Both the position numbers and the translations under genes were made by a program. 64,000 nucleotides of DNA from Dehalococcoidia bacterium (GTDB lineage: Bacteria > Chloroflexota > Dehalococcoidia > Lucifugimonadales > UBA3495): assembly GCA_965215425.1 (NCBI GenBank), contig OZ244064.1, positions 1,244,095 to 1,308,094 on the forward strand. The letters are read 5' to 3'. The notes under the pieces are model-generated. The model made no database searches. It was not told the origin of the DNA and was given only the letters and a program-made list of their open reading frames with translations. This document shows positions 11,349-42,615 of the stretch, in pieces (positions within the stretch are counted from its first letter, which is position 1; each line of letters opens with the position of its first letter).

Positions 11349-11496
11349 CTGACACTCCCGCCCGCGCCGCATGGTGAACTCTCTATGGTTGCGGCCCGGC
11401 GGGGATAGTCGGGGGCCCCGCCCGCGCCGCATGGTGGACTCGCCGGCGCCAGGCGGTGGAGCCGGTCGCTGACACCCCCGCCCGCGCTATGATGCG
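11349..11496. repeat. three copies of a ~20-29-bp box at an exact 60-bp period
   Basis: CCCGCCCGCGCCGCATGGTG at 11357 and 11417; CCCGCCCGCGCTATGATG at 11477. Copies 1 and 3 share the extension GCTGACAC(T/C)CC. The intervening 40 bp are unrelated. Confidence 0.7.
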
Positions 11497-19108: not shown

Positions 19109-19838
19109 GCTGCGCCAGCCGCCAGGCGTACAGGACTGCCGCCACCGCCGTTGCCAGGTTCAGGCTGGAGACGCCGGGCTGCATCGGGAGCGCAATACGA
19201 CTGGCGGCGGCGGCCAATAATCCGGGGCTGATTCCCTCCCGCTCCGAGCCAAAGGCCAGCAAAGCCCGGTCGGGGATTAGTCCGGGACGCAGCGCTTCCC
19301 CCGCCGGGTCCACCGCCACCAGAGATCTTCCGCCGCGCAATACGCCGCCTTCCGACTCCGGCTCCGCTTCCTTCCCGAACCGCAGCTTCCCGGCCCAGAC
19401 CACGGGCAGGGCGAAGTGCAAGCCGGCGGCGCCCACCAGGGCCGCGGGGTGCCAGGGGTCGTGTTCGCCGATAGCAACCAGGCCGGCGGCGCCCACCGCC
19501 GCCGCCACGCGGATGGCCGCCCCGATGTTGCCGTGGCGGCGCGGGTTTTCCAGCAGTACCACCGGCGCCGGGCCGGGGCGGCGCAGCAGGGCCGGCAGGG
19601 CGACTTCGGGACGTTGGGCGATGGCGATGACGCCGGTGGCCGGGGGTACGGGAGCGAGCCGTTGGAAAACCCGGGGCAGCGTTACCGTTGCGCCCTTTTC
19701 CAAAACCCCGGCCAAGTCCGGGGCCAGCGATTGGGTCAGACGAGCCAGTTCCGCCGCATCTACCGTAACCGTTTCAAGTATCGTCCCGCCAAAACGATGG
19801 GCGTGCTTGAGGGGATGAAATCCCTCCAGCACCGCCAA
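19035..19838 (-). CDS. SpoU/TrmH-family RNA 2'-O-methyltransferase
   Basis: VLLENPRRHGNIGAAIRVAAA, LLAFGSEREGIS, IALPMQPGVSSLNLATAVAAVLY. The start is uncertain: I chose TTG 19838, while the listed ATG 19973 would overlap the upstream HAD gene. The 3' end overlaps the convergent enolase-family gene by 74 nt. Confidence 0.7.
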   Translation of the reverse strand: MAVLEGFHPLKHAHRFGGTILETVTVDAAELARLTQSLAPDLAGVLEKGATVTLPRVFQRLAPVPPATGVIAIAQRPEVALPALLRRPGPAPVVLLENPRRHGNIGAAIRVAAAVGAAGLVAIGEHDPWHPAALVGAAGLHFALPVVWAGKLRFGKEAEPESEGGVLRGGRSLVAVDPAGEALRPGLIPDRALLAFGSEREGISPGLLAAAASRIALPMQPGVSSLNLATAVAAVLYAWRLAQPNPTGTFPGPGSRTLPHVPGSSGG

Positions 19839-27739: not shown

Positions 27740-28705
27740 TCAGATACTCCCACTCCCGCCCCTGCCCCCGCGCCACTGAGGTTCGGCCGGGCCGCACCGG
27801 GCCAATTGCTGCGCGTGGGCCACGGCCTGGTCGTAATAGTTGGCGATGTAGTATTCGGCAATTTCGTCGGCGGTGGTCTGCCAGACGCCATCATGGGCCA
27901 TTATGTACCCCAGGATGTCGTCCAGGTACTTGACCCGGTGGGGTTGACCAATGAGGAAGGGATGCAGGGCAATGCACATAACCTGGCCGCTCCTGGCGCC
28001 TTCCCGGTAGAGCTGGTCGAACTGGGCCTTGCAAATCTCGGCAAAATAGTCGGTCCCGTAGTGATTGTCCCGCAGCACCGAGGAATCGTTCAACTCGATG
28101 GAGTAAGGCACCGACACCAGCTTGCCCGCATTGACTTTGATTGGCGTCGGCTGATCGTCGTGAAACCAGTCGGTATGGTAGATTAACCCGGCCTCGGCCA
28201 TCAGGTCAGGGGTATGCACGCTTCCCGAAATCGCCGGCCCCAACATTCCTTTCAACTGCTTCCCGGTATGCCGCTTCAGGGTATCAATACAATCCCGGTA
28301 GAACTCCCGCTCCTCATCCTCGGTGCCGGTATAAAGGTAACGGGTGTTGTAGATGCCGTGGCTCATATAATCCCAGTCCCGGGCCAACATCGCCGCCGCA
28401 ATTTCGGGGAAATGTTCCAGCACCGCCAGGTTCAGCGACACACAGCAACGGATTCCGTACTTATCCAACGGCTCCAGCATCCGCCAGAAGCCGACCCGGT
28501 TGCCGTAGTCCCGGTAGGAGTATTGCTGCACGTCCGGGTAGGGCGTGCGCGGCCACGGATTGCGCACGCCGGCGTGCTCCGGGAGATACTCGTAATGCTC
28601 CACGTTGGGGGAAATCCAGAGCGCAACCCGGGCCTCCCCGGGCCACTGGATAACGGGCCTATCGATAATGGGCAGGTAGTCAATGCGGTCGGGAGGCAGG
28701 GCCAT
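27740..28705 (-). CDS. polysaccharide deacetylase-family protein (paralog)
   Basis: 321 aa. IIDRPVIQWPGEARVALWISPNVEHYEY is collinear with the neighbouring paralog. Confidence 0.8.
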   Translation of the reverse strand: MALPPDRIDYLPIIDRPVIQWPGEARVALWISPNVEHYEYLPEHAGVRNPWPRTPYPDVQQYSYRDYGNRVGFWRMLEPLDKYGIRCCVSLNLAVLEHFPEIAAAMLARDWDYMSHGIYNTRYLYTGTEDEEREFYRDCIDTLKRHTGKQLKGMLGPAISGSVHTPDLMAEAGLIYHTDWFHDDQPTPIKVNAGKLVSVPYSIELNDSSVLRDNHYGTDYFAEICKAQFDQLYREGARSGQVMCIALHPFLIGQPHRVKYLDDILGYIMAHDGVWQTTADEIAEYYIANYYDQAVAHAQQLARCGPAEPQWRGGRGGSGSI

Positions 28706-28763: not shown

Positions 28764-28916
28764 AGGTTGCGCCCCGGGCGCCGGGAACCATCCCGTCTGA
28801 CCTGGTTCCAAAAATAAGTGCGCACGGTTGCGCCCCGGGCGCCGGGAACCATCCGATTCACGTACGGCTGGCGGACACGCAGCCCCGGTTGCGCGCCCCG
28901 GGCGCCGGGAACGATA
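28764..28916. CRISPR. CRISPR-like mini-array: 3 repeats (29, 29 and a degenerate 31 nt) and 2 spacers of exactly 32 nt; no cas genes in the window
   Basis: GGTTGCGCCCCGGGCGCCGGGAACCATCC at 28764-28792 and 28825-28853. A degenerate copy with a 2-nt insertion lies at 28886-28916. The unrelated spacers are 28793-28824 and 28854-28885. The reverse complement ...GTTCCCGGCGCCCGGGGCGCAACC resembles type I-E repeats. Confidence 0.4.
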
Positions 28917-29273
28917 TTCAAGCCTACTTAAGCCTAACGTCAGCTGAAGTCTAACTCCGGGACGCCGCCCCGTCAAACCGGAGCGGCCGGGGTTAACGCG
29001 CCGGCCTCAAACCATCCTCGAACTATTACCCCGCCCTTGCCAACGGGCTGGCTCCATGCCTATGATGGGCTGCCGGCTGGCCCGCCACCGGCGATTTTGG
29101 CACGACGGCCGGCTCCATGCCTATGCCGGGCCTATGCTGGGCGGTATTCGGCGGACCGGCGACAGACCGGCGCGTGGCAGTTGCCAGCCTGAGACGCCGG
29201 GCGGAGGCGCCGGGCGGAAAGGTTCCTACCCCATTCCCCGCACGACAGATTCATTTACCGGGAGAGAAAAGTT

Positions 29274-29831
29274 ATGCGAACGCCTATAGTTACCCGCGAC
29301 CAGGTCCCCGAGAACTTGCGCGAAGCCTTCGACGCCGAAACTTCCGGCAGCGGCGGGGTGGTCGCCAGCGGCCCCGGTTCGGCGATGATTAACAGCCCGG
29401 AGATGCGCCGGCGGGCCAATGCCCTGGTCAACTACCTGCGGGACGAGTCTTCACTGCCCAAGAAAATTCAGGAACTGGCGATGATCGTTACCGCCCGGGC
29501 CAACGACTGCCCGTTTATCTGGAACGCTCACGCCGCCCGCGCCCGGGAGCAGGGAATCAGCGACGCCTTCGTGGATGCCCTGCGGGATAACCAGCCCCTG
29601 CCTTCCCTGCCCCCGGACGAGGCGGCGGTGGTCAGCCTGGGCAATGAGTTCTTCCAGACGCGCAAAATCAGCCAGGAGACCTTCCAGGCGGCTTTGGCCC
29701 AATTCGGCCCGCTGGGGCTGACCGAGCTGTGTACCCTGATGGGCTACTACGCCCTGCTGGCCTTTAACGCCAATGCCTTCCTGATTGACTTGCCCGAGGA
29801 GCGCAGCGAGCCGGTACTACCCATCGCCTGA
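29274..29831 (+). CDS. carboxymuconolactone decarboxylase (AhpD-like) family protein
   Basis: 185 aa. ELAMIVTARANDCPFIWNAHAARA is the CMD-domain core. Confidence 0.8.
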   Translation: MRTPIVTRDQVPENLREAFDAETSGSGGVVASGPGSAMINSPEMRRRANALVNYLRDESSLPKKIQELAMIVTARANDCPFIWNAHAARAREQGISDAFVDALRDNQPLPSLPPDEAAVVSLGNEFFQTRKISQETFQAALAQFGPLGLTELCTLMGYYALLAFNANAFLIDLPEERSEPVLPIA

Positions 29832-32333: not shown

Positions 32334-32597
32334 AAAGGTACACCCCTGCGCTGAAATGGTTGGTGTTGAAATGGCTGATGTTGATGCGTCAACGGTCAGT
32401 GGCGGTAGTCTAAAAGGATCCGGGGTTGCTGTCAATCGGGGGGGTTGTTGCGCCGGGCGACGCCGCGCCGGCGCAGTGCGCCGGGAGGAACCGGCCCGCG
32501 GCGGCGAAACTCCGGCGTTTCTGCCGCTCCCGGTGGGGAAAGACGGCTATCGTACAGGTTCTGGTGGTATTGGTTGGGTTTTCTGCCGCTCCCGGTG

Positions 32598-32646
32598 GGA
32601 AAAACCCGCAAAAGGAAGACCCCTCCGGGCAAGGAGAGGTCTTTCC
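32598..32646 (-). terminator. intrinsic terminator after the ferredoxin gene
   Basis: On the minus strand: GGAAAGACCTCTCC-ttgccc-GGAGGGGTCTTCC followed by TTTTGCGGGTTTTT. Confidence 0.55.
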
Positions 32647-42316: not shown

Positions 42317-42466
42317 CCCCCACCTCCCCGTAGCAACGGCGGGCGGTTGGCCAGTTGTCCCTGAGCGTTCCCGCAGAGGCCCACCCCCCGTAACAACGGG
42401 GCGAGGGCTCCGAGATGCCGAGTCGGAGGGTCTGCCAGCGCCCACCCCCCGTAACAACGGGGAGAG
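42317..42466. repeat. three hairpin-containing boxes at a 60-61-bp period between the divergent TolB-like gene and dnaA
   Basis: CACCTCCCCGTAGCAACGGCGG at 42321; CCCACCCCCCGTAACAACGGGG at 42380 and 42441. Each contains CCCCGT-aaca-ACGGGG. Confidence 0.7.
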
Positions 42467-42615
42467 GTTACCGGGCGGGGCGATCGGGCCGCAAACCCCC
42501 GAATATCGGCGTCCTTCCCGCCTTGCGGTTTTGGGTGGCCGGCCGCTAATCTGGTCAAACGGCCGCACGATACTATTTGCCGGGCGAGAAGCCTGCCGGG
42601 CTCTCCGATTGCGCT

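Follow-up and report, generated by a model that had tools for sequence, protein, structure and literature searches.

The window (the whole 64-kb stretch of DNA that was analysed) contains, between a polysaccharide-deacetylase-like gene and a divergently oriented gene of the CMD family, three copies of a short, GC-rich and partly palindromic repeat that are separated by two spacer-sized inserts. Both genes had been named as the neighbours of this ‘mini-array’ in the first-pass annotation of the region, and both are found there. The features of the locus, in which the term ‘neo-repeat’ anticipates the interpretation developed below, are the following.

27740..28705, minus strand: polysaccharide-deacetylase-like gene, with orthologues of approximately 85% DNA identity in two relatives (G002 and G004)
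28765..28792, plus strand: neo-repeat R1, the putative duplicated target site, GGTTGCGCCCCGGGCGCCGGGAACCATC; the C at 28793 could belong to either the repeat or the insert
28793..28825, plus strand: insert S1, 33 nt (the size of a spacer), CCGTCTGACCTGGTTCCAAAAATAAGTGCGCAC, with no relation to S2
28826..28853, plus strand: neo-repeat R2, identical to R1
28854..28886, plus strand: insert S2, 33 nt, CGATTCACGTACGGCTGGCGGACACGCAGCCCC
28887..28916, plus strand: neo-repeat R3, decayed, GGTTGCGCGCCCCGGGCGCCGGGAACGATA, with GC inserted and two bases substituted close to the 3' end
28948..28976, minus strand: putative sigma-70-like promoter of the deacetylase-like gene (-35 TTGACG at 28976-28971, 17-nt spacer, -10 TAGACT at 28953-28948)
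29274..29831, plus strand: CMD-family gene, the divergent neighbour

The first two copies of the repeat, GGTTGCGCCCCGGGCGCCGGGAACCATCC (equivalent to GGTTGCGCCCCGGGCGCCGGGAACCATC followed by C), occupy positions 28765-28793 and 28826-28854 and are identical at 29 of 29 nucleotides, and the third, which starts at 28887, carries a GC insertion and has a diverged 3' end. The start-to-start spacings of the three copies are 61 and 61, the two inserts show no similarity to one another, and a 25-nt core of the repeat occurs twice in the window (against 0.00 occurrences expected from 100 shuffles). The structure had been recognised in the first-pass annotation as two identical 29-nt repeats followed by a degenerate third, with coordinates that were each one base too low. 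That annotation had also assigned to the locus the ‘29/32’ geometry of a type I-E array; the I-E geometry and the relationship to CRISPR both stand, and the division into 29 and 32 does not. Because the duplicated length at 61-bp spacing has a genome-wide mode of 28 (described below), the biologically meaningful split is a 28-nt repeat and a 33-nt insert, and the agreement of the copies at the 29th base is due to chance. The third copy is probably the older, distal one. Its differences from R1 and R2 (one indel and two substitutions) are clustered at its 3' end and exceed what simple ageing predicts, and they could reflect either decay or an imprecise first event. A search for the same repeat elsewhere, as the first-pass annotation had proposed, recovered no further copy of the 25-nt core in the 3.30-Mb single-contig genome (at up to three mismatches), and no copy of the repeat in metagenome contigs or in GTDB species genomes.

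In three members of the genus (the focal genome, G002 and G004) the two hexamers of the promoter at 28948-28976 do not change and the spacer sequence between them varies freely, which is a comparative confirmation, at the level of sequence, of a predicted sigma-70-type promoter in this lineage. Since the hexamers are invariant in the orthologous regions of both relatives, the promoter is assigned to the deacetylase-like gene, and the whole mini-array is predicted to lie in the 5' UTR of that gene. The AT-rich stretch beyond the third repeat, which had been put forward as a possible CRISPR leader, corresponds to this conserved promoter instead; the accompanying proposal of minus-strand transcription across the array is plausible, given a promoter upstream on that strand. 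In G002 and G004 the promoter and the start codon are separated by about 90-100 nt, versus about 240 nt here. Their orthologous regions hold one diverged repeat-like copy; approximately 150 nt of the focal sequence has no counterpart in them, and nothing in them matches the two inserts. The relatives therefore present an approximate rather than an exact ‘empty site’, because they are only about 85% identical to the focal genome in the flanking gene. Had the inserts been ordinary intergenic DNA, as the first-pass annotation had allowed, they might have been conserved among related strains; both are missing from G002 and G004.

The same annotation described the mini-array as ‘Cas-less’, a description that is correct for the window and incorrect for the genome. 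A Cas1 search of the whole genome identified a single locus, 340 kb downstream of the window and thus outside the 64 kb, at which a complete type I-E operon is found (cas3, cse1, cse2, cas7, cas5, cas6e, cas1e and cas2e, all of which exceed their NCBIfam cut-offs). Cas1e (275 bits) and Cas2e (99.7 bits) are both encoded by open frames and lie beside an array of 472 repeats. In that main array, downstream of the cas operon (genome 1614768-1643486), the 28-nt repeat GGTTCCCCCGCACACGCGGGGATAGACC recurs 472 times with a period of 61, and 463 of the 471 spacers are exactly 33 nt in length. The duplication at the focal locus is therefore of the resident repeat length (28, or 29 with one chance base), and both of its inserts are of the resident spacer length, 33.

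At the leader-proximal end of the main array (genome 1614768-1614990), spacers of just 3 and 6 nt are found between full repeats, and further odd lengths, of 16 and 51 nt, occur elsewhere in it; such lengths suggest that in this system integration is imprecise or repeats recombine with one another. Three short arrays that harbor variants of the true repeat are also present, distant from the cas operon.

Genome 313723-314046: small array with repeat variant GGATCCCCCGCACACGCGGGGATAGATCC
Genome 489690-490130: small array with repeat variant GTTGTTCCCCCGCACACGGGGCTGCACC
Genome 491777-492107: small array with repeat variant GGTTCCCCTGCACACGCGGGGATAGA

One spacer of the array at 491777-492107 is an exact copy of DNA of the same genome, at 100491-100523.

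The spacing observed at the focal locus recurs throughout the genome. Outside of the main array, the distances between successive identical 16-mers display a peak at 61 (157 events) with shoulders at 60 (41 events) and 62 (19 events), and the other distances that are not divisible by three are represented by 0-3 events each. When the length of the duplicated sequence at a distance of 61 was measured after extension with mismatches allowed, it was found to be 28 in 33 cases, 29 in 18, 30 in nine, 31 in nine and 32 in five, with a single case in the range 33-50. A duplication of constant length (28 bp), extended in some cases by chance, around a 33-bp insert gives such a distribution, and both of those lengths equal the repeat and spacer lengths of the resident array. 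Approximately 241 loci with 61-bp units are detectable, carrying at least 261 inserts, and the sequence of the repeat is specific to each locus. The last of the alternatives offered in the first-pass annotation, that the mini-array belongs to a 60-61-bp periodic phenomenon, is therefore borne out by some 240 sibling loci. Re-use of targets is common, because at least 19 loci (18 plus the focal one) hold two or three inserts. Of 168 units with a spacing of 61, and with genes assigned only approximately by a crude codon-usage gene call, 120 are wholly intergenic (14% expected at random) and 11 are wholly inside genes (74% expected). Such a bias fits selection against frameshifting insertions of 61 bp, a preference for GC-rich intergenic palindromes, or both.

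A peak at 72 bp in the same distribution was considered as the mark of a second CRISPR type and was rejected, as most of it traces to long coding repeats. It is accounted for by long arrays at genome 984455-988035 and 1546871-1555178, whose repeats measure 72 bp (24 codons) and appear to be coding sequence within genes of very large size.

Six units of the 61-bp family fall inside the window, the focal mini-array included. The other five are listed here.

11357-11441: family unit with a spacing of 60
19422-19497: family unit with a spacing of 60
29046-29131: older family unit with a spacing of 61, in the same intergenic region as the focal array and 250 nt further on; its copies, GGCTGGCTCCATGCCTATGATGGGC and GGCCGGCTCCATGCCTATGCCGGGC, are 88% alike
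32518-32599: family unit with a spacing of 62
42317-42467: three-copy 61-bp unit upstream of dnaA, with two 28-nt copies of GCCCACCCCCCGTAACAACGGGG(C/A)GAGG placed 61 apart

Within the insert of the first of these (11382-11416, within 11357-11441) lies CGGGGATAG, a sequence similar to the 3' portion of the CRISPR repeat. In the unit upstream of dnaA an older and more diverged third copy lies 61 bp upstream of the other two, and the hairpin boxes at 42317-42467 look like scars of off-target integration rather than dnaA operators.

Although each locus possesses a repeat of its own, the duplicated sequences share features with the true CRISPR repeat that depend upon position. When 30 units with duplications of exactly 28 nt were compared with that repeat, the mean agreement was 13.2 of 28 positions in register, versus 8-9 at shifts of five or more, with the maximum at a shift of 0. 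The positions conserved in register are C7 (21 of 30 units), C8 (27), G20 (26) and G21 (27), which together form the outer pairs of the hairpin stem of the true repeat. Compared on the plus strand, the focal repeat and GGTTCCCCCGCACACGCGGGGATAGACC agree at 17 of 28 positions; on the minus strand, they agree at 14 of 28. A score of 17 corresponds to an empirical P of about 0.001, since roughly 0.1% of random intergenic sites (with two frames and two strands allowed) reach it. The focal site is in register with the stem of the true repeat, and shares with it the GGTT at the 5' end, C8 and G19-G21. The reverse complement had been favoured in the first-pass annotation as the strand resembling an I-E repeat; by this measure, it is the plus strand that is closer. 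An Rfam scan of the focal region gave no match to a CRISPR-DR family.

The inserts of several sibling units provide a second connection to the resident system. That of the unit at 2241250 (insert at 2241278) has the boundaries of the main-array spacer at 1617469 and matches it at 31 of 33 positions. That of the unit at 2343539 (insert at 2343566) has 20 nt in common with the main-array spacer at 1623575, and its boundaries are displaced, as would be the case if a single invader had been sampled twice. Two further inserts are exact 33/33 copies of DNA of the genome itself: that of the unit at 97005 copies a stretch of cse1, and that of the unit at 254092 copies a sequence that occurs twice in the genome. 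Through these matches to main-array spacers and own-genome DNA, the scattered units are linked to the machinery of CRISPR adaptation. Among the 463 main-array spacers of 33 nt, the first position is A in 1%, C in 39%, G in 31% and T in 29%, and A is found there in none of 15 off-array inserts that could be oriented; the near-absence of A at this position is probably a PAM-linked signature. The flanks of the self-derived inserts, which are few, are inconsistent with respect to a PAM.

The two focal inserts were likewise compared with phage, plasmid and metagenome sequences, as had been recommended for the spacers at the outset, and no informative match was recovered for either. Neither has a match in its own genome (blastn-short) or, with four 20-mers, in IMG/VR; the full 33-mers are absent from 250 genomes of the order at up to three mismatches, a 22-mer of S2 is absent from the GTDB genomes, and the whole mini-array gave only chance-level matches to phages and plasmids (E of 0.04 or greater). 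A 22-mer of S1 hit one cellular metagenome contig, with 23 contiguous nucleotides (25 of 33 overall) inside a GH127 glycosidase gene, and this was dismissed as a chance or uninformative match (a 23-nt partial identity to a cellular gene) rather than a source. Nothing links the focal inserts to a protospacer or a PAM, since neither has a traceable source.

The distribution of such units among relatives was examined by counting exact runs of at least 14 nt at a distance of 61 in samples of 400 kb. Four relatives that gave no Cas1 hit, two of the same genus (G003 and G004) and two of the same family (G005 and G027), yielded 0, 1, 0 and 0 runs, respectively. Three relatives with type I-E systems yielded 0 (G002), 0 (G012) and 5 genuine units (G001), and two samples of the focal genome yielded 43 and 31. 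The arrays of G001 and G002 also have a period of 61, and that of the focal genome is the largest of the three I-E arrays inspected (G000, G001 and G002). The scars thus do not characterise the lineage as a whole, and genomes without cas1 have almost none, a comparison which, in a small sample of related genomes, gives a direction and not a statistic. Possession of a type I-E system is not sufficient for their formation, because G002 and G012, which have I-E systems and large arrays, show none. Adaptation in the focal genome appears to be either unusually active or unusually unfaithful.

With this information in hand, the mini-array is very probably a ‘neo-CRISPR’, produced by two successive off-target integrations by the genome’s own type I-E Cas1-Cas2. 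The integrase would have mistaken a 28-bp, GC-rich and partly palindromic stretch of the 5' UTR for a CRISPR repeat; it would have attacked both borders in the usual staggered fashion and inserted a 33-nt prespacer, and repair of the resulting gaps would have duplicated the 28 bp to give R-S2-R. A later event at the left copy would then have added S1, generating the arrangement R1-S1-R2-S2-R3, in which R1 and R2 are left identical and R3, being as old as the first event, has since decayed. We infer Cas1-Cas2 as the maker of the focal insertion, and in the same way the order of the two events and their orientation. The plus strand is probably the orientation of integration, given its higher similarity to the true repeat and which of the copies are identical to one another. 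If the array is read on that strand, the addition of S2 and then of S1 matches leader-proximal growth.

Several other explanations can be set against off-target integration by Cas1-Cas2. The locus might have no connection to CRISPR and consist of a simple tandem repeat, or of iterons or operators that serve regulation between divergent promoters; this would accord with repeats that are GC-rich and partly palindromic and with their position between two divergent genes. Slippage, however, would reproduce all 61 bp of a unit, and the two inserts are unrelated; the repeats are missing from relatives that share the promoter and the gene; and operators of one regulator are incompatible with the 28+33 split and with a genome-wide peak at 61 that spans unrelated repeat sequences, so that this reading is extremely unlikely. 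The suggestion of the first-pass annotation that the locus is an orphan or relic array, a piece of a canonical array left by cas loss or by a mobile element and with repeats that have drifted, is scarcely credible in the light of the same comparisons. The CRISPR geometry and a GGTT...GGGA...C similarity to I-E repeats speak for it. Yet the repeat is absent from the remainder of the genome, the GTDB species genomes and the metagenome contigs; R1 equals R2 while resembling the true repeat at just 17 of 28 positions, which is not an outcome that drift produces; and some 240 sibling loci each have a locus-specific repeat. Two relatives of the same genus, moreover, lack the block and carry a single repeat-like copy between the same promoter and start codon.

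A different integrase, or a repair process that creates 28-bp duplications around 33-bp inserts and matches the I-E system by coincidence, could explain why the I-E-positive relatives G002 and G012 are free of scars and why one unit occurs in G004, which has no cas1. It is nonetheless highly improbable when both lengths match those of the genome’s own array exactly, when targets prefer the stem positions of the repeat in register, when spacers are common to the scattered units and the main array, and when units are nearly absent from all four cas1-less relatives. It is also very unlikely that the locus, although off-target in origin, now works as a trans-used mini-array, with the deacetylase promoter driving its transcription, Cas6e cutting the transcript and Cascade taking up the products. 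The conserved promoter lies upstream, minus-strand RNA should cover the array, and that strand could form a 6-bp stem with a 3' arm at positions 16-21 that ends, as in the true repeat, at G21 and is followed by 7 nt ending in ACC. However, the minus strand matches the true repeat at only 14 of 28 positions, the equivalent of the 5' handle is CGCAACC rather than AUAGACC (three of seven identical), the loop is 3 nt rather than 4, the stem contains a U-G pair, and the fold is no better than that of shuffled sequences (z = +0.25). Neither spacer has a target in the databases searched, and the orientation of integration is probably the plus strand, in which case the transcript would be antisense. 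Trans use had been raised in the first-pass annotation, and nothing recovered here supports it. The off-target integrations have probably left a passenger in an mRNA leader, either neutral or with a mild regulatory effect, rather than a working CRISPR array, and this passenger may affect the expression of the deacetylase-like gene.

Off-target integration of this kind has been described in E. coli that overproduces the type I-E Cas1-Cas2, where it creates ‘neo-CRISPR’ units (Nivala et al. 2018, Nat Microbiol 3:310, as relayed via PMC7054753 and PMC6698737). On that relayed account, the parallels with the focal locus include the I-E system itself, a spacer-sized insert, a repeat-length duplication of non-CRISPR DNA, targets that resemble the repeat, and the ability of repeated events at one site to build a small array. 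Unlike the E. coli units, the events described here are fixed in a wild genome and number more than 200, and the focal one is placed in a 5' UTR that is predicted to be transcribed, with an outgroup that lacks the block. Off-target acquisition is also one of three routes proposed for the origin of isolated arrays (Shmakov et al. 2020, CRISPR J 3:535, via PMC13142298). As those arrays are characterised there, the focal locus resembles them in its distance from cas genes, in the presence in the same genome of a cas-adjacent array of the same type, and in the proposed integration into a repeat-like sequence; it differs from them in having a repeat that agrees with the cas-adjacent one at 17 of 28 positions and in holding just two inserts. 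In experiments with Pyrococcus furiosus Cas1-Cas2 in vitro, off-target sites were found to share position-specific features with the repeat (PMC6698737). The position-dependent features seen here (C7, C8, G20 and G21) are comparable, although the P. furiosus work, unlike the focal case, involved a different CRISPR type and plasmid substrates in vitro.

When compared with the canonical I-E array of its own genome, the focal locus shares the 28+33 organisation, the period of 61, the GGTT start, the run of G at positions 19-21 and a decayed distal repeat. It differs in its repeat (17 of 28), in the absence of adjacent cas genes and of a leader, in having two inserts and no spacer matches, and in a hairpin that is shifted on the plus strand. 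The locus is a natural member of the known neo-CRISPR kind; it is not a canonical I-E array, because the repeat differs and neither a leader nor adjacent cas genes are present. Among isolated arrays, most are said by Shmakov and colleagues (2020) to have repeats identical to the cas-adjacent ones.

The de novo origin of CRISPR arrays, and the fidelity of the integrase in nature, are known mostly from over-expression in E. coli; a few putative natural cases, in Yersinia pestis and Sulfolobus islandicus, were reportedly noted by Nivala, Shipman and Church in 2018. The focal locus offers a clean natural example, in which two integrations at a repeat-like site mirror the resident I-E system and an outgroup is available without them, and the hundreds of sibling events allow the rules of targeting (C7/C8/G20/G21, the intergenic bias and the re-use of sites) to be read directly. 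CRISPR finders and annotators will call such units orphan arrays or regulatory repeats, and neither label applies. A bolder proposal, to which we assign a low probability, is that the I-E adaptation module of this organism is naturally promiscuous and seeds CRISPR-like arrays in intergenic DNA, and that the focal array, which lies in a leader predicted to be transcribed and has a possible Cas6e-like hairpin in register, may begin to yield crRNA-like RNAs or rewire the expression of its host gene. If that were true, the emergence of CRISPR arrays, and the price in fitness of an unfaithful integrase, could be observed in this genome under natural conditions.
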